A stretch of DNA of 64,000 nucleotides from assembly GCA_963746255.1 (NCBI GenBank), contig CAVVAJ010000001.1, positions 70,039 through 134,038 on the forward strand. The letters run 5' to 3'. The position numbers and the translations under genes were made by a program. The notes beneath the pieces were generated by a model that worked only from the letters and a program-made list of their open reading frames with translations, did no database searches and was not told where the DNA came from. This stretch comes from an uncultured Chloroflexia bacterium. GTDB lineage: Bacteria; Chloroflexota; Anaerolineae; Anaerolineales; UBA4823. Below, piece after piece: positions 22,647 through 62,818 of this stretch (the stretch's first letter is position 1; each line of letters opens with the position of its first letter).

Positions 22647-22931
22647 GCTTGAGCTGCGCTGTAAATACGCAAATAGATTCAAGCATAAACAATAGTATAT
22701 ATCAAGACCGCACAACCCCACATAAAGCGGACCGAGCTATACGCCCGGAGGGAACGCGGCGCAAAAGTCCAAGTTTGGTTCGGGTTATTGAAGCGTTCGG
22801 GGCCAACCCGTCCCGCCGGTGAAACCCCCGTTGGGCGGCTGTCCAGCTTTTATTTTTCTGTTATTTTGCGAATTGATTTTTTTAACGAGTAAGACGGCGC
22901 ATTTAGTCATTGTGACACTAAAGGGAAAGCA

Positions 22932-23153: not shown

Positions 23154-23541
23154 GAGTCTACCGGTTTAAGATGACTGTAAAGCATTGGCGAGGAAAAAAA
23201 GCCGCCCAACCCTGCGTAGAGCACGACTCGGCTATGCCGAAAGGTCAACGCCGCGATTTTTAGCAATTTAGCTTTTGGCGAACTGTAGGAACAAGTTTAA
23301 GGAATTAGCGGGGGTTAGTGACTTTGATCGATGCCCTCACAGCCGGGTTGGCAGCCGCGCCTCCGCGCTGCGCAGCCGGCTTGGGCGCATGTCGCGTACC
23401 TGCGCGGGCGCAACCTGGGTAAGGAGTCTTTTTTCGGTGCAAGCAGGGCAGCCTCGTTGTATAATATTTATTAGGCCTGAATATAGCTAAATATACCGCA
23501 AGGTGGCGTGGTACGCACTTGGTAGAACGCAGAGGAAAGAA

Positions 23542-46046: not shown

Positions 46047-46171
46047 AAATTGTTATTTGAGTAACGTACAACGGATAAGCTCACCCAACGGGTGCTTTTG
46101 CGATCGAGACTTGCCGGTCGTAGCCAACTGCGCTGTCCCATGCGCCGCGATTTGTCCCAAGCGAGCCCTGG

Positions 46172-46552
46172 TCAGCGTGCAGTGGGGGTTGGGCGCAACC
46201 CACCCTTTGTACTTCCTATATGGATACCCAGATGCAAGAAACGGATGGCTACCCAGCACGCCGGGTAGAAGAGCGGGATAAGACATCCCACACCTACCAG
46301 CGTTCCATACTCCCTCCACCATGAGGAAGCCTCCAACCAGGGATACGTACTACCCCGGAGGGAAAGGAAAACTACCAGCGCTTGCACGATCAGCCCGATG
46401 ACAGTACAAGACGACAACATGATCAACGGCTCAGCCCAAGTAATCGTGCCTGCTGAAACCTGTTGATGGAGCTCAACTTTTGAATTAGGGGATGTTTTTT
46501 CGGGAGCGTTCATGGTCATACTCCTTTCTGTGGGCACGTGCTGCGTCATCAT
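46172..46552 (-). pseudogene. Fragment of a membrane protein (possibly the N-terminus of a CPBP-like protein), frameshifted and truncated.
   Basis: ORFs 46172..46552 and 46053..46322. Weak pattern only. Confidence 0.25.
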
Positions 46553-51780: not shown

Positions 51781-51969
51781 TCATGTCCATATTTTCCATG
51801 CCGTGTTACTGTGGTTGCAGCCGGTTGCAGCAGGATCACTAATCCGCGGCATGAAGTAAGGAGAACAGGCTTGTGTCCAGTTCCGAGTTGGTAAGGTAAA
51901 GGATGTATCCCCGAAATAACCGCATGGGTAGGCGTGTGGTTCATAACTACGGCGGGTTGAAGATTGCAA
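51781..51969 (-). pseudogene. Degenerate relic related to the ComM/YifB-like fragment at 62.5-62.7 kb.
   Basis: SYEPHAYPCGYFGDT... A 17-nt identity (51933-51949) with 62722-62738. Confidence 0.4.
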
Positions 51970-52039
51970 GGAAGTGAGAACAGCACTGATGGATGTGTTC
52001 TACTCCCACCGTTTTTGCTCCTATCGCTACTCTATGTGT

Positions 52040-52110
52040 AACCAACATTTGCAAATCGCGCCGCATACCCCGAGGGCGATAGCCCCGTCTGCGTTTACAC
52101 GGGGTTGGGC
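52040..52110 (-). mobile_element. Possible short attC-like site.
   Basis: Minus strand reads GCCCAAC...GTTGGTT with partial arm pairing (TGTAAACGC / GCGATTTGCA). Confidence 0.3.
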
Positions 52111-53532: not shown

Positions 53533-53610
53533 AATTCACTTTTCTTGCTGGCGAACCAGCCCAACTCGTGATCCGAACGCCTTAGGCACACTAGAACTTA
53601 TAGATTCCAG

Positions 53611-53802
53611 TCAGCCCAAAATATTTAGGCCGCCAAAGATTAACAAAACCGCCCACGCAAACAGTTGCATGAGCGGCTCCAATGTTATTCTATGATTGCC
53701 ACGCACCCGCCTGCGTGTGCCATAACGGACATACCAATAGCACAGCCCGTTTTTGTTGTTATTCAAAGTATAGATGATATTTTCAATCCTCACAAGTAAC
53801 AT
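53611..53802 (-). CDS. Small tail-anchored protein (63 aa) inside duplicated unit A.
   Basis: C-terminal TM LFAWAVLLIFGGLNILG. Copy B carries a premature stop. Confidence 0.35.
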   Translation of the reverse strand: MLLVRIENIIYTLNNNKNGLCYWYVRYGTRRRVRGNHRITLEPLMQLFAWAVLLIFGGLNILG

Positions 53803-56297: not shown

Positions 56298-56327
56298 CTT
56301 CAACCTCCTGTCAAATGGGCGGCCCAA

Positions 56328-56943
56328 CTCGTGATTAGAACGCCTTAGGCACACTAGAACTTATAGATTCCAGTCAGCCTAAAATATTTAGGCCGCCAAA
56401 GATTAACAAAACCGCCCACACAAACAGCTACATGAGCGGCTCCAACGTTATTCTATGGTTGCCACGCACCCGCCTGCGTGTGCCATAACGGACAGACCAA
56501 TAGCATAGCCCGTTTTTGTTGTTAGTCAAAGTATAGATGAAATTATCAATCCCCACAAGCGACATACCTCCAATTCATCAACACGTCTTCAGAATGTTAC
56601 ATCCCCATTAATTGACTTCCACTTATCCTCATCCCACGACTGCCGCACAGGCAGCGGCCACAATCGCATCATCTCCATCCCAGGGCAAGTTAGCACCAAC
56701 GTATTCACGGGTTGAGCGGGCGGGGTGTAATATTGCAACTCGCAATTGCCAGGGAGGTGCATCGCTGTTATGCCTTCTGCGACATGGAACGTCCTTTGGG
56801 CCATTACAGGGTAGGCCTGCAGGAAGGTGAGTAAAGCGATGACAAGTACTAAGATAACCGCATCCCACAAGTCGGGTGCACGCTATGTTAGGCGGCTCTC
56901 ACCTGCATAGCCAAGCCGTACAATCCTTTCAACTGTCGGGCAA
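56328..56943 (-). repeat. 616-nt duplicated unit, copy B.
   Basis: See 53565..54180. Confidence 0.85.
56589..56870 (-). CDS. Small secreted protein (93 aa), copy B.
   Basis: 88 of 93 residues identical to 53826..54107. Confidence 0.5.
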   Translation of the reverse strand: MWDAVILVLVIALLTFLQAYPVMAQRTFHVAEGITAMHLPGNCELQYYTPPAQPVNTLVLTCPGMEMMRLWPLPVRQSWDEDKWKSINGDVTF

Positions 56944-57355
56944 CAGCTACAGCTCAAGAAGCAATTAGAGCCGAACAAGAGGCACTTGAGAAAAGGTATG
57001 AGAACCTATATTCAACGGCTAAAGATCAAGGCATAAATATTATCAAATCTTCCGACTTGATTACCAACGACTCCAGTGTAGTTAAATTTCATTATTCAGA
57101 AAAGATGTTTAATTTAATGAAAGTAAGTAGACCCGGGATTCCACGTCGCAATAATTATACTTATATTTTCATCCAAACAGGTGATAATGTTGGGTGGGAC
57201 TTGCTTAAGTTTTGTGTTGTTTTCACCATTTTCGATAATTTTTTAGCGATCAATTTCATGTATCGTTTCAGAGCCCGTGAGACAGATTTAGAGGGAAAAA
57301 GAATGGAGACTTCTTAGCCAAGGAACTCAGGTAAGATAAACAGAAGGAGACCAAA

Positions 57356-57475
57356 ATGGCTAAGAAGAAAGAGAGTGTAGAACAAACAGTCCGCAATATT
57401 CGGAGGAAAACGCGCAAGCAGTATTCGTCCGAGGAGAAGATCCGCATAGTCTTAGAGGGCTTGAGAGGGGAGAGG
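57356..57475 (+). mobile_element. N-terminal fragment of an IS3-family transposase OrfA.
   Basis: MAKKKESVEQTVRNIRRKTRKQYSSEEKIRIVLEGLRGE, then unrelated sequence. Confidence 0.65.
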
Positions 57476-57773
57476 GGTATATATGCTATAATATTTCTCG
57501 TGAAAGAAAAACCGGACCGTGGAGCCAGTGGGACTGGTTTTAACAAGCCCGGAACGGCACACGCAGAAGGGTGCGTGAATGTCCTAGAAATGGTACTGAT
57601 ACGCTATTCCATCCCAGATTTTTTCCGGTATGCTTTTTATAACGGCTCTTTGATAAGCAATTATTTTTTGGATAATAGCGGAGGTTTGGAGGATAGAAAA
57701 ATATCTGTTTGGTAAGTCATGTGTCGGATGATAATGAATTGAATTGCCAATTCGATTTGTGGAGGAGTCGAAA

Positions 57774-59072
57774 ATGTTTCGTAAAAAAGTTTCTTTTGTT
57801 ATTATGTTCGTCTTGTTGGTGATACTAGCTGTCGGCATTGGCTTGCTAAAAGTCTCAACTTCCCAAGCGGCAAGGCTGTGGGGAAAGGAGGGGCAGTTGA
57901 ACGCACTCTTATCTCCGCCGTTGAGCGATTTTCTTCATATCTGGACCGGCGATGGCGTAGACAACTTGATGCCAGCAGTCGCATATAACAGCAAGCATGA
58001 TGAATATCTGGTTGTCTGGGAAAATGACCGTGGGGCAACCCGGGATATCTATGCCCGGCGCGTTGCCGGCGATGGAACTTTAAGAAGCTGGTTCACCATC
58101 GTTTCAGATGCGAACAAATGGAATTGGTTGCCTGATGTGGTTTACAATCCGGCTGAAGACGAGTATTTGATTGTCTATACTTATAAATACAACACAAGCG
58201 AATATGATATTTACGCTAGGCGCGTTAAGTGGGATGGAAGTTGGATGAGTAATGAATTTGTCGTTAATTTGGACCCCGGTATGCAATGGGAACCTGCCGT
58301 AGCGTACAACAGCCAGAATAACGAGTATCTGGTGGTTTATGAGAATTATTGGTCCGGCACTATGCGCGATATTGCCGCCCAGCGTGTAGCCGCGGATGGA
58401 ACCTTGTTAAGCTGGCGTAATATTTCCTCCGCGGCGAATACGGTGCGCCGCCTGCCTGATGTGGCTTATAACGCCACAAACAATGAGTATTTGATTGCCT
58501 ATACCTATCAGTATCCTACGGAAGGGGATATTTTGGGCAAGATCAGTTCAGCCAACATGGGAACTCTTGGCAGTGAAATTAAAATTGTCGATAACACAAA
58601 TGATCAGGATAGCGTTGCCTTGACTGCGGCCGCAGATGAGTTTTTTGCCGTTTGGAATGATGGAACACCTACGCAAGGAACAATCTACGGCAGACGAATT
58701 AGCGGAACCTACGCTCTGCAACCCTATATCCCCATCGCCAATCATTCCGGCAAGAATGATGTTGAACCGGATGTCGCTTTTGGGCCTGCTTATGGGTATC
58801 TGGTTGTTTGGCGACATATGCCGTCGTTAACGGAATGGGATGTATATGGACGTTTTGTGGAGGTTGGGCAAAATATAGCCGCGGGGAGCGAGTTTGTTAT
58901 AGATAATGAAGTGGGGACTAATCAAAAATCTCCTGCAGCTGCTTGTGCCGCTTCTGGCCAATGCCTTGTGGTTGAGGAGGATAATTCGTCCATGGGCGGA
59001 CCCGTTGATTATGAGATTCGAGGGCGTTTTATTGAGTTGTATTCGATTTTCCTACCAGTTGTGGTGAAATAA
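57774..59072 (+). CDS. Secreted protein with seven ~50-aa VVWE-type repeats (paralogous module to 11560..15030). It ends in IFLPVVVK.
   Basis: RBS ggagg. Signal/TM MFRKKVSFVIMFVLLVILAVGIGLL. Repeats PAVAYNSKHDEYLVVWEND...DIYARRV. Confidence 0.75.
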   Translation: MFRKKVSFVIMFVLLVILAVGIGLLKVSTSQAARLWGKEGQLNALLSPPLSDFLHIWTGDGVDNLMPAVAYNSKHDEYLVVWENDRGATRDIYARRVAGDGTLRSWFTIVSDANKWNWLPDVVYNPAEDEYLIVYTYKYNTSEYDIYARRVKWDGSWMSNEFVVNLDPGMQWEPAVAYNSQNNEYLVVYENYWSGTMRDIAAQRVAADGTLLSWRNISSAANTVRRLPDVAYNATNNEYLIAYTYQYPTEGDILGKISSANMGTLGSEIKIVDNTNDQDSVALTAAADEFFAVWNDGTPTQGTIYGRRISGTYALQPYIPIANHSGKNDVEPDVAFGPAYGYLVVWRHMPSLTEWDVYGRFVEVGQNIAAGSEFVIDNEVGTNQKSPAAACAASGQCLVVEEDNSSMGGPVDYEIRGRFIELYSIFLPVVVK

Positions 59073-59145
59073 CTTGATCGAGTTTTGGGATTATGATTCT
59101 TCCAAGTGGTAATTCGGCCGAATTCACGACGCCCGTCGCCGTGAG

Positions 59146-59549
59146 ATGACCCCTCCACCTCCACTTCCTAGTCCCACCCCACCCACGCCTGAGCCATCCC
59201 CTGAACCCGAAGTCGATGTCCGCATTTCCTTCATCTTCTACGACGGCGTTGTGCCCTATGTTGAGAGTGATGAGTATGCCCAGATCACGAACAATGGGAC
59301 AGGGATCGTGGACTTGCAGGGCTGGCGATTGAACGCAGGTGACCCAGGGCAGGACTTCGTCTTCCCCAGCTACATACATCCAGCCAGGGCAGTCCTGTCG
59401 GGTTTACACCAACGAGTACCACCCTGAATCTTGCGGATTTAGCTTTGGTAGTGGCACCGCGATTATGGAGTAACAGCGGAGACTGTGGGTACTTGTATAA
59501 CGATGATGGGGGTCTTGAGGACGAGTACTGCTATAATCAATTATCGTGA
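59146..59549 (+). pseudogene. Lamin-tail-domain (LTD) protein, frameshifted twice and lacking a signal peptide.
   Basis: SDEYAQITNNGTGIVDLQGWRLNAGD..., then by frame hops ...CRVYTNEYH...IWSNSGDCGYLYNDDGGLEDEYCY. Confidence 0.6.
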
Positions 59550-59551
59550 TG

Positions 59552-59711
59552 GTTTAACGGATAAGCTCCAGTATTTCACATTATCCACAGAATTTGTGCT
59601 GATAATATTCTTCTGAGAGACATTATCCAAATCTTATACCGATTTTGATTCGTATAAAATCTATTTGGTTGATTTCGCGCATTAAGCTGTTGGGTTATCA
59701 ACCCGTTAGGT
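59552..59711 (+). mobile_element. Possible attC-like site (AT-rich, weak arms).
   Basis: GTTTAAC 3 nt after the stop ... GTTAGGT. Only R-box and short arm pairing. Confidence 0.3.
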
Positions 59712-59745
59712 GCACGAAAGAAATCACGCAGAAAAAATCTACCAT

Positions 59746-60657
59746 ATGTCAAAAAATATTCGGGAGGGACTTACTCTAGCAGGAATTCGATTCTGGACAG
59801 CTTCATTACTTCCAGCTTTCGTTGGTACAACATTACCTTTTTGGCTTCAGCCACCCAATTTTTCTTTTAGGCTTCCCGCAGCAATCGAATTTCTTTTAGC
59901 AACTGTGTTATTTCATTCAGGCTTTTCTTTTCTATTAGCCTGGTTTGAAGGTAATCACCCTGAAAATTGGTCAAAAGAAAGAATCCTTGTATCTGCAGGA
60001 GTTTGTATTAGTTTAGCGTGCATAATTGGATTTCATATCAATTTCAACCTACAACTCAATTCAAATGTATATGACGGTATTTTTCTGGTTTATGGCTTTT
60101 GTGCACTCCTTGTAGGTGTACTCTATGTTTTCCCACCAATTATCTTTTATCGTCAAGTCGGTGGAGAAATTGTTATCTCTTACAGCCTGGGATTGTTGCC
60201 AATTCTAGGAGCCTATGTTGTCCAGGCTGGTGATATTTCTCGCACAGTATATTTGGCGGCATTACCCATAATTGTTATTACGGGTTTATGGATTTGGATC
60301 AACGAAATGGCAAATTACTCAATAAGTGAGAAATCTGGACGCAAAACATTGGTAACTTACTTTGGGCTCCGCTTCTCTGGACGGGTTGGGGTTCTTTTAA
60401 TTGCCATGATTTATTTTCTCGCTTTGTTGCTCGCGGTGTTTTCCGCTTCGGTAAACCCCTTGACACTGGTTTCTTTGCTATTCATTGTACCTATCTGGAA
60501 AATTGTAAAAAAAGCAAGGCACAATTATTCAATTTTGGATCAAATGCTTCATGCCAGAAATAATACCGCTGTTTTACATGCGGCAACTTGCCTCACCATT
60601 GCATTAACTTCCCCGATCACCTGGATTTCGGTCCCGATCCCTGTTTTATCATGGTAG
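59746..60657 (+). CDS. UbiA/MenA-like polytopic membrane protein lacking both Asp-rich motifs.
   Basis: RFWTASLLPAFVGTTLPFW and WINEMANYSISEKSGRKTLVTYFG parallel MenA segments, but NDYxD and NxxRDxxxD are replaced. The start is uncertain (GTG at 59710 is possible). Confidence 0.45.
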   Translation: MSKNIREGLTLAGIRFWTASLLPAFVGTTLPFWLQPPNFSFRLPAAIEFLLATVLFHSGFSFLLAWFEGNHPENWSKERILVSAGVCISLACIIGFHINFNLQLNSNVYDGIFLVYGFCALLVGVLYVFPPIIFYRQVGGEIVISYSLGLLPILGAYVVQAGDISRTVYLAALPIIVITGLWIWINEMANYSISEKSGRKTLVTYFGLRFSGRVGVLLIAMIYFLALLLAVFSASVNPLTLVSLLFIVPIWKIVKKARHNYSILDQMLHARNNTAVLHAATCLTIALTSPITWISVPIPVLSW

Positions 60658-60686
60658 GATGAGAATCAAATACCAGATACCTATGC

Positions 60687-60808
60687 ACCAAACCCCGCGT
60701 TAACCTGACCTGCTGCGCAGCGAGAACCGGCGCGGCAAAATGCAATCCTTGGCACTGAATAAACAGCTTTCGGAGCTAAAACGCAGGCAGGTTACGCCCT
60801 CGTTAGGC
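60687..60808 (+). mobile_element. attC-like recombination site (122 nt).
   Basis: ACCAAAC...GTTAGGC. Arm GCGTTAACCTGACCTGCTGCG pairs with CGCAGGCAGGTTACGC, leaving three unpaired bases on the 5' arm. Confidence 0.5.
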
Positions 60809-60899
60809 TGCAATAGCACAAGCGAATATTAATAATTTCAGAACTGCAGGAGGATACACCATTGGGAACGTGGATTAGTCATCGAAATGGGAGTGCATT

Positions 60900-61655
60900 A
60901 TGCCGGGAGTAGAAGGACGGGTGGCGTTGGTAACGGGTGCTGGACGTGGAATTGGGCGGGTGGCGGCTGATCTGCTGGCCTCACGCGGTGCTCGGGTGAT
61001 GGCCGTTGCGCGCAGCGAGAATGAATTGCAGACGCTGGGCCTGGACTACGTTGTGGCGGATCTGGGTACACATGACGGCTGTACACTTGCGGTGGAGGAA
61101 ACACAGGATCGCCTGGGGCCGGTTGCAGTCCTGGTGTGCAATCACGGTATTGGTTCGGCCCATGAGCGGGTGATCTGGGAGCAGGAGCCGGAGGTCTGGC
61201 GCGAAACAATGCGCATCAACCTAGATGGTCCTTATTACCTGTCACAGCTAGTTGTCAAAGACATGATTGAACAGGGTTATGGACGGCTTGTGTTCACGAG
61301 TTCGACAGCCGGACAGGTGGCGGAATACGCCGGCAGCGCTTACAACAGTTCAAAACACGGTCTTCTGGGCCTGATGCGCTCGGTTGCCCAGGATGCTGGG
61401 CCGCATGGCGTGACTTCCAACGCGGTGCTGCCCGGCTGGGTGCGAACACAAATGGCTGAGACTTCGGCCAAAGTCGAAGCCGAGCAGCGTTGTATCACCC
61501 CGGACGAGGTGTGGGCGGAAAGGGCTGCGCTTTACCCGGTGGGCCGGGTGGTGACACCCGAAGAAGTGGCCGAGGTGATCGCCTTCCTGGCATCCGAAGA
61601 ATCCAGTGGCGTCAACGGGGAGGCCATAACCGTAGCCCTTGGAAGCATATGGTGA
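60900..61655 (+). CDS. SDR-family oxidoreductase (FabG-like).
   Basis: VTGAGRGIG and YNSSKHG. RBS gggag. Confidence 0.85.
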   Translation: MPGVEGRVALVTGAGRGIGRVAADLLASRGARVMAVARSENELQTLGLDYVVADLGTHDGCTLAVEETQDRLGPVAVLVCNHGIGSAHERVIWEQEPEVWRETMRINLDGPYYLSQLVVKDMIEQGYGRLVFTSSTAGQVAEYAGSAYNSSKHGLLGLMRSVAQDAGPHGVTSNAVLPGWVRTQMAETSAKVEAEQRCITPDEVWAERAALYPVGRVVTPEEVAEVIAFLASEESSGVNGEAITVALGSIW

Positions 61656-61777
61656 AAATGAAATCGGCGGACGGGTGGATGGACCATGAAAAAAACCTTG
61701 GTTTTCTAGTCGGGGGATGCAGTTCGCGTAAGTTTTGGGTTTGTTTATTTGTTGCACACTTTTACAACCAAAATGCC

Positions 61778-61908
61778 GCCTAACATCGCGTGCACCCGAC
61801 AGGTGGGATTCGCCCCGCCAAAAAGAGTTGCTTCTGTACTTGAAGGTTTTCCGTCAAAGCAGTCCCTTTCCCGTCCCGCCCACCTGCGGGTAACGCAAAC
61901 CGTTAGGC
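61778..61908 (+). mobile_element. attC-like recombination site (131 nt), the best example.
   Basis: GCCTAAC...GTTAGGC. Arm GCGTGCACCCGACAGGTGGG pairs with CCCACCTGCGGGTAACGC, with a GC/A mismatch-bulge and an unpaired A on the 5' arm. Confidence 0.65.
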
Positions 61909-61983
61909 AACCAAGTGGTGTAGGTGAAATTCGTTTGAAAATGGCGCACAGTCAATAAGCACTAATCTGCTGAAGGAGATAAA

Positions 61984-62148
61984 ATGGGGCTGTCACTCAC
62001 ATCGGCGGTTATTGGTTTTGGGATGGTAATATTCGGTGTAATACTTCTAATCATTCGGAAGCAGCGAATATTTGCCATGTTGTTTCTGATCGTAGGCTTC
62101 GTGTTGATTGTAGTACCTTATAGTTTGATTTATTTCTTTCTGGATTGA
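61984..62148 (+). CDS. Small 2-TM membrane protein (54 aa, below the ORF-track cutoff).
   Basis: RBS aaggag 6 nt upstream. MGLSLTSAVIGFGMVIFGVILLIIRKQRIFAMLFLIVGFVLIVVPYSLIYFFLD*. Confidence 0.5.
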   Translation: MGLSLTSAVIGFGMVIFGVILLIIRKQRIFAMLFLIVGFVLIVVPYSLIYFFLD

Positions 62149-62432
62149 GTAGTAGTGCGAGCTGTAGGGAATGTTTCCCCTGGAAAATAGTCGGTTTGGG
62201 AGCTGTTTACAAGTTCAAAGATACGGGTATGGGATGTAACAGGATTGGTTTAAGGATCGAGACGATGCCTCAAAGAAATTGCATCGCGTGGCTTGAAGCA
62301 ATAGTTTGACTGATTCGTATGATACGAATGGACGAGAGCAGAGTCCTAGAGTAATCTTCACCTTTGTGCACAAGTTTGTCTTTCAGGGTTTATTCAATTT
62401 TGAAAGCGAAGGTTTTGGTCAGTGTAAAGGTT

Positions 62433-62475
62433 GCCTAACATAGCGTGCACCTGACGCTGGGGATTCTGCGGCGTT
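62433..62475 (+). mobile_element. 5' half of an attC-like site of the same family. The 3' arm is absent.
   Basis: GCCTAACATAGCGTGCACCTGACGCTGGGGATTC, then unrelated sequence. Confidence 0.45.
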
Positions 62476-62488
62476 TTTGGGCTTTTCT

Positions 62489-62725
62489 CTACGCCTTAGC
62501 CTTTTTCTGTTCGGACGGCTCTTCAACGCGCTTTTGGATGGCAATTGAAGGTTCTCCCAATCGATCTTCGCGCAGCTTGTCACAGTCCACACGCGGCACT
62601 TCGACATGGATATCGATACGGTCTAACAATGGTCCAGAGATGCGTTTTTGGTAGCGGGTGATGACCGTGTTTGAACAGGTGCACGGCTTTGCTGTGTCGC
62701 CGTAATAGCCGCAGGGACAGACGTG
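62489..62725 (-). pseudogene. Internal fragment of a ComM/YifB-family (Mg-chelatase-like) ATPase gene.
   Basis: CPCGYYGDTAKPCTCSNTVITRYQKRISGPLLDRIDIHVEVPRV...GEPS. Both the N- and C-terminal parts are missing. Confidence 0.7.
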
Positions 62726-62818
62726 TGGTTCATAACTATGGCAAATAGGCATTATGGAGAATGTCGACAAATGGCACAGGGTTTTGACATTTCACGTGAA
62801 GGATGAACTCAAAGCATA

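Follow-up and report, generated by a model that had tools for sequence, protein, structure and literature searches.

A putative attI site heading an integrase-less run of gene cassettes in an uncultured Anaerolineales bacterium

In a stretch of 64,000 nucleotides from an uncultured Chloroflexia bacterium (Anaerolineales, UBA4823; GenBank assembly GCA_963746255.1, contig CAVVAJ010000001.1), hereafter the window, a run of cassette-like genes on the plus strand at 59.5-62.5 kb points away from another such run on the minus strand at 52-57 kb, and neither has an integrase gene beside it. How did a run of this kind arise, and why do the two diverge? An earlier note, made from the letters of the window, had taken them for an unusually fragmented or rearranged example of a cluster of attC sites lacking an integrase (CALIN). 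We suggest instead that the plus-strand run very probably belongs to a decayed sedentary chromosomal integron, of which it is the end next to attI; integrons of this class occur in Anaerolineae-type genomes and in metagenomes of sediment. The locus is of a known kind, a degraded integron and a CALIN, so that the earlier note was right about its kind but not about its architecture, and the element is an ordinary one in a genome that is unusually rich in orphaned attI sites. The window corresponds to C1:70039-134038 of a 5.0-Mb assembly in nine contigs (C1 to C9), all of which was searched; coordinates without a contig name are those of the window.

The gene order given in the earlier note for the plus strand (LTD pseudogene, site, MenA-like gene, site, SDR gene, site, 54-aa gene, half site) was recovered, except that the first, "weak" site is an attI rather than an attC. 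The segment 59552-59711 had no match at E <= 10 to R1, the covariance model that we used for attC sites, and formed no end-to-end hairpin, its folding z of -1.7 coming from local stems. When 57744-59720 was compared with the organism's own genome by BLAST, 59526-59710 recurred as an element of about 185 nt, the copies of which always end at G|TTRGGY and then diverge. An alignment of eight copies is conserved to ...GGTTATCAACCCG|TTAGGC, and the sequences beyond are unrelated. An nhmmer profile found about 19 copies in the genome at E < 1e-5, and all 11 of the best copies had an attC on the same strand within 8 kb downstream. The window copy, 59526-59711 on the plus strand (profile E 8e-46), carries the core GTTAGGT at 59705-59711.

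Integrase genes and their relics adjoin this element. A tblastn search with an intI stub placed at least six of the copies against a relic of the 5' end of intI, in the canonical divergent arrangement (C1:157975, C1:416259, C1:710178, C5:475177, C7:705677 and C7:783054), and the copy at C1:157979-158162 begins exactly at the start codon of the intI relic. The element is also found directly upstream of intI stubs in L001, L008, L009 and L016; L009 and L016 are two other metagenome-assembled genomes of Anaerolineae/Anaerolineales, and the element precedes the intI start in both. In two contigs of sediment metagenomes, L025 (JGI Ga0617968_000336) and L026 (Ga0452210_002838), only 2-5 nt separate it from the start codon of an intact 322-aa IntI; the IntI of L025 reaches 449.6 bits on TIGR02249, where the cut-off is 265. 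These two contigs share the attI of the window (nhmmer E 3e-43 and 7e-33). The cassettes behind it have attC sites of the same family, positive with R1 (E down to 2e-23), and intI and cassettes are in divergent orientation; the contigs differ from the window in that their integrase is intact, while the window has none.

The public metagenomes gave a similar picture. Four unrelated metagenomes from sediment or permafrost had contigs covering 59518-59706 at a depth 25-100 times that of the flanks; the depth collapsed at 59707, and in each of these metagenomes several different continuations started at 59707-59711. Some of their contigs carried an intI start to the left of 59526. Judged by these features, 59526-59711 is the predicted attI, here called type 1, of an Anaerolineae-type integron class, with its crossover placed at G59705|T59706. 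A literature search for Anaerolineae attI sites found no paper on them. Over the window, own-genome and foreign copies the mean column identity was 76%, and TGnTATAAT at 59529-59537, on the strand that reads towards the cassettes, was invariant. This extended -10 at the left edge of the attI may be the promoter of the cassettes.

The attC sites that follow were judged with R1, which was built from 14 clear attC sites of the same genome, excluding those of the plus-strand run, and was searched with filters off. By definition an attC forms a hairpin, imperfect and about 57-141 nt long, in which R'' (RYYYAAC) and R' (GTTRRRY) are followed by a spacer left unpaired and by an L box, with extrahelical bases in the '' arm. 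The 14 training sites fold like attC, with a 7-bp R box, an internal loop of 3/5 nt and an L-box stem with extra bases in the 5' arm. On their MAFFT alignment RNAalifold gave just the R box and four L-box pairs, so that R1 is mostly a sequence model, with 11 pairs. R1 is not limited to this genome, since it also detects the attC sites that adjoin intact IntI genes of others. Genome-wide it gave 54 matches, 37 of which fall within C1:8-176 kb, where attC sites of both orientations are abundant. A scan by regular expression and folding (RYYYAAC...GTTRRRY pairs) found the best sites, 61778-61908 among them, and others on either strand in the rest of the window and throughout C1:8-66 kb; it missed degenerate sites and made many chance matches outside C1:8-176 kb, and R1 was used in its place. 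Counts of a loose R''+L'' motif were uninformative, and an Rfam scan of 51-64 kb gave no match.

Both full sites that had been read as attC on the plus strand were found by R1. The best preserved, 61778-61908, scored 68.5 bits (E 1.2e-22) and has every defining feature of an attC, including R'' GCCTAAC and R' GTTAGGC; its DNA fold has a z of -3.6 on both strands, and none of 200 shuffles was as stable. The other, 60687-60808, scored 59.9 bits (E 1.4e-19). Its R' is GTTAGGC at 60802-60808, its L-box stem is intact with two bulged bases on the '' arm, and it is 84.6% identical to the attC at C1:41885-42006; by family homology and the L-box stem we recognise it as an attC. The half site that the earlier note had placed at 62433-62475 is homologous to attC too (R1 match 62433-62542, 32.9 bits, E 7e-10), but it is longer than was proposed, since the homology with other attC sites stops at about 62509; just the 5' part of an attC is present. 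The plus orientation agrees with the direction of the open reading frames (ORFs), with the common 5' arm and with the bulged bases on the '' arm. With three attC matches within 1.9 kb and no intI within 7 kb, the run is a CALIN, as had been stated. R1 also detected attC sites elsewhere in the window, at 22710-22836 and 23204-23386 on the plus strand and at 46083-46194 and 52004-52110 on the minus strand.

Read from the putative attI, the plus strand holds three cassettes in canonical order, each with an ORF and then an attC, and their boundaries (G|TTRRRY) lie at 59705|59706, 60802|60803 and 61902|61903, where metagenome contigs break. Cassette 1 (59706-60802; ORF 59746-60657) encodes a UbiA/MenA-like membrane protein, with a Pfam UbiA match at E 2.8e-7 and NCBIfam matches of MenA type, all of them far under the cut-off. 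Read by eye, the protein has no Asp at either of the places where an Asp-rich motif is expected, and it is probably not a working prenyltransferase. Metagenome contigs begin at 59704-59706, the left edge of this cassette. Cassette 2 (60803-61902; ORF 60900-61655) encodes an SDR oxidoreductase (Pfam adh_short E 6e-45). Cassette 3 (61903 to about 62510; ORF 61984-62148) encodes a hydrophobic peptide of 54 aa and ends in the truncated attC (62433 to about 62510); a metagenome contig (X1) covering 61880-62470 spans it with variable flanks. The array thus has an attI at its head and cassettes made of an ORF and an attC, as a complete integron has, and lacks an IntI gene beside it.

The SDR cassette allows a comparison with a sister platform. 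Its copy at C7:971971-972967 is 98.1% identical over 997 nt and has the same left boundary; the untranslated parts are 100% identical, and the ORFs differ by 11 synonymous and six non-synonymous codons. On C7 this cassette comes first after the sister attI, whereas in the window the UbiA-like cassette lies between the attI and the SDR cassette; the attI sequences of the two loci are 92% identical and the LTD parts 87%. The position of the UbiA-like cassette follows the pattern that would be expected of an insertion at attI, or of cassette excision on C7. Past their first 20 nt, the attC sites of the two SDR copies (60803-61908 and C7:971971-973070) are unrelated, which looks like recombination within the conserved 5' arm of attC.

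What became of the integrase? As the earlier note had reported, the window holds no tyrosine recombinase, with no match to TIGR02249 or PF00589. The search for intI that it had proposed for the whole genome found no intact gene in the assembly and N-terminal stubs only, the nearest at C1:139864-140037, 5.8 kb past the end of the window. The best match to TIGR02249, with 119.6 bits, was a frameshifted N-terminal stub at C1:157540-157975. PF00589 gave six matches genome-wide, none of them in the window, and the three intact tyrosine recombinases of the genome scored 27 bits or less on the IntI model. Among 31 related genomes, IntI exceeded the cut-off in eight and fragments were present in several others, so that integrons are common in this order. 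The closest relatives of the genome's IntI and attI are in L009 and L016, and judged by them, too, the host looks like a member of the Anaerolineae (Chloroflexota); intact 322-aa members of this integrase class occur in metagenomes. In L009 the IntI (505-1305) has an internal deletion and its catalytic region is gone; in L016 (550-846) it stops after about 88 residues.

In the place of intI beside the putative attI, the window has a frameshifted pseudogene of a lamin-tail-domain (LTD) protein, 59146-59540 on the plus strand (Pfam LTD E 2.7e-5, under the curated cut-off), the final codons of which are fused to the left edge of the attI. LTD copies stand just upstream of attI also at C5:478890-478515, C7:970300-970661 and C9:531714-531955. 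In the C5 copy, about 105 nt, including a stub of five intI codons, lie between the LTD stop and the attI. The window copy is without this stretch and its junction falls in the short repeat CTGCTAT[A/T]A, from which a further small deletion is inferred there. We considered whether the LTD ORF could be a relic of intI read in antisense and rejected this, as the ORF has no TIGR02249 or blastn similarity to intI.

From these observations we propose the following course of events. Cassettes would have been inserted through IntI-catalysed attI x attC recombination at G59705|T59706, with the UbiA-like cassette as the latest arrival, ahead of the SDR cassette. A deletion would have removed intI and placed the LTD gene beside attI, and in the window copy an extra deletion of about 105 nt at the short repeat would have taken the last intI codons. 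The cassettes would now be fixed unless an integrase comes from elsewhere, and they may still be transcribed from the conserved extended -10 at the left edge of attI. In the centre, which now holds an insertion sequence (IS) relic and unrelated modules, the integrase genes that were lost, one for each run, would have faced each other.

A number of points weigh against this account. The assembly is about 97% complete, and an intact intI could lie in a gap. R1, being trained on the genome's own sites and not IntegronFinder's attc_4, tests membership of a family. The R'' box of the attC at 60687-60808 is weak (ACCAAAC, degenerate, with two mismatches; the AAC/GTT is kept). The earlier note had wished to see the plus-strand sites set against shuffled controls, and in folding this separates 61778-61908 and leaves 60687-60808 without excess (z -0.1 and -1.2). 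The candidate promoter has no -35 box and was missed by the promoter scan, the promoter and terminator predictions being no better than those in shuffles. The differing attC of the two SDR copies is unexplained by simple cassette transfer, and the high identity of these copies could stem from gene conversion, not from cassette movement. Finally, the junctions of the patchwork in the centre were without support in the public runs examined, where its modules stand in other contexts.

The divergence of the two runs can be explained because the minus-strand run is a second platform, headed by an attI of a different type. Its units of 616 nt end in an element of 98 nt, at 56322-56419 (nhmmer E 5e-29), the head of the run, and in a tandem duplicate at 53560-53656 (E 1e-28), both on the minus strand. 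A further copy, at C1:32061-32156, is separated by 42 nt from an intI stub of a second kind. The 22-nt core of the element recurs in 24 metagenome contigs. At least 11 of these carry a divergently oriented IntI gene with its start at a distance of about 99 nt, and most of the others end too near the core to tell. The 98-nt element therefore appears to be a second type of attI. The integrases linked to type 2 are 53-57% identical to those of type 1. On this sequence evidence the window is likely to contain two platforms that lie back to back, both without an integrase, one with attI type 2 at the head of the minus run and one with attI type 1 at the head of the plus run.

The pairing is not confined to the window. 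At C1:31.4-32.2 kb the two attI types again face outward, in an arrangement turned through 180 degrees, and both intI stubs survive; the stubs converge only about 260 nt apart, and long arrays extend outward on both sides. Both independent loci of attI type 2 thus lie within about 3 kb of an outward-facing attI of type 1, a proximity that would rarely be due to chance with about 19 type 1 copies in 5 Mb. The pairing was absent from the contigs with intact integrases, and it therefore looks specific to this genome or lineage. In two other metagenome contigs (L037, SDBU01173664.1, at 370-552 and 1624-1712; L035, at 3111-3182 and 5281-5366), attI sites of the two types are co-oriented, 1-2 kb apart, with no integrase between them, so that attI elements appear to travel inside arrays as well. 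One of the first genes that follow the type 2 copy at C1:32061-32156 is an ORF (C1:32545-32847) that by eye resembles a RelE/ParE-like toxin.

The region between the platforms is larger than had been described. The earlier note gave it as a gap of about 800 bp holding just an IS3 relic and an ORF fragment; the attI heads are about 3.1 kb apart (56322-56419 and 59526-59711), and the 442-aa gene and the LTD pseudogene are not cassettes. The segment 56944-59145 is a non-cassette patchwork without family matches, which comprises a segment of unknown nature, a high-copy element of 126 nt (57133-57258), the relic of IS3 OrfA (57356-57470, assigned from its N-terminal sequence only and without a family match) and a module for a secreted repeat protein of 442 aa (57468-59154, no family match). 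The 126-nt element has a copy at C9:537239-537364 with 93% identity, no Rfam match, and very high depth in metagenomes with several different flanks. The 442-aa module is a discrete unit in metagenome contigs of three studies at about 98.9% identity; its connection to 57318 has the opposite orientation in such contigs, and the segment has thus been inverted in some lineages. Each module of the centre has its own contexts in metagenome contigs, which break at the module borders. A tblastx comparison of the centre with the organism's own genome found no intact IS3 and no other coding relatives.

These features of the centre bear on how the two runs came to lie back to back. It is conceivable that one ancestral array was split by inversions or IS activity and that the two runs are headless pieces of it, as the fragmented reading of the earlier note would have it. 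The attC sites of both orientations that litter C1:8-176 kb and the IS3 relic in the centre speak for such a history; moreover, the attC 5' arms at 56859-56896 (minus) and 61775-61812 (plus) are 89% complementary, and metagenome contigs join those two arms. However, each run starts with an attI of its own and of a different type, the two types are tied to integrases that are only 53-57% identical, and the outward-facing pair at C1:31.4-32.2 kb still has both intI stubs. We consider a split array, and with it the fragmented reading, unlikely. A false join at 56.9-57.8 kb, made by the assembler through repeated or high-copy modules, is still less probable. The centre does consist of short modules, each seen in several metagenome contexts at very high depth, and no indexed public run contained more than 55% of the words of 56880-57480. 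Against this, C1 measures 1.1 Mb in an assembly of nine contigs, which suggests long reads, the repeats involved are all shorter than 650 nt, and a mirror image of the arrangement exists elsewhere on C1. The reading of the plus run as an attI with cassettes is independent of these junctions in any case.

The identity of the attI itself could also be doubted, since about 19 copies per genome is far above the usual one attI per integron and metagenome depth over the element is very high, as would suit a generic dispersed repeat such as a miniature inverted-repeat transposable element (MITE) or a regulatory repeat. We find this hardly credible, because complete integrons of other samples have the element at a set position and in a set orientation with respect to the intI start codon, the similarity ends at GTTRRRY every time, same-strand cassettes with attC follow all of the 11 best copies, and the element has neither terminal inverted repeats nor target duplications. 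Sister platforms with similar LTD/attI junctions hold different cassettes, and one cassette that is 98% identical differs in position, as might be expected if cassettes had gone on moving after the loss of the local integrase. It is possible, although in our view rather doubtful, that the orphan attI sites are working parts of a distributed integron system, served in trans by an integrase that was encoded elsewhere in the genome at that time, on a phage or in the DNA of another cell. On that view the recurrent outward-facing pairs of attI types 1 and 2 might likewise work together as twin platforms and not be accidental.

How does the locus compare with known systems? CALINs have been proposed to arise by integrase loss or rearrangement, and Chloroflexi are listed among the integron-bearing phyla (PMC4889954). 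The locus agrees with the definition of a CALIN (PMC4889954; IntegronFinder 2.0, PMC9024848) and fits the proposal of degraded integrons. Unlike a CALIN that is an internal fragment, it keeps an attI and is the head of an integron; the relics here are N-terminal intI stubs beside attI, and the host genome carries many attI copies of two types with no working integrase. Pseudogenes of the C-terminal part of intI were found near only 15 of 279 CALINs (Cury et al. 2016, PMC4889954), and IntegronFinder seeks attI solely by exact match to the class 1-3 sites (PMC4889954). Profiles of the C-terminal part cannot detect N-terminal stubs such as ours, and some of the elements scored as CALINs would be integron heads whose integrase has been deleted to a few codons.

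The attI1 of class 1 integrons consists of a simple site with accessory integrase-binding repeats, and its promoter Pc lies within or near intI1. Like that site, the putative attI here is a double-stranded site by the intI start, ends in GTTRRRY where cassettes insert, and has short motifs repeated upstream of the core. In contrast, there is no sequence similarity between the two, and the putative promoter of ours is an extended -10 on the edge of attI that lies next to intI. The sedentary chromosomal integrons of the Vibrio type are likewise chromosomal, with cassettes mostly of unknown function and attC sites that are alike within a genome; they have, however, one platform, a working integrase and one long array, whereas here there are many short arrays, headed by numerous attI copies of two types, and the intI genes found in the assembly are all relics.

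Under the interpretation that we favour, a run that seemed headless and oddly oriented becomes readable as an attI and three cassettes, with the latest insertion point visible. Two usable attI sequences are gained for non-clinical integron classes. Whether integrases serve attI sites in trans could also be examined well in such a genome, which combines about 19 copies of attI with the lack of a working integrase.

The right end of the plus run is marked by an internal fragment of comM, a Mg-chelatase-like gene, at 62521-62742 on the minus strand (Pfam Mg_chelatase E 2.8e-15), which truncates the array and is 88% identical to the intact comM at C9:1349676-1349875. A 50-nt copy of the end of this fragment lies at 51904-51953, and the attC at 52004-52110 adjoins it. 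The two comM relics of the window have a small insertion in common and are therefore copies of one truncated fragment. They are direct repeats that bracket a cassette-rich segment of 10.8 kb, and a mirror duplication was rejected for them because the repeats are direct and not inverted. At C9:1348642-1354449, the intact comM is followed by two relics of its 3' end (family-model positions 404-499 and 439-499), which suggests repeated integrations at the 3' end of comM.

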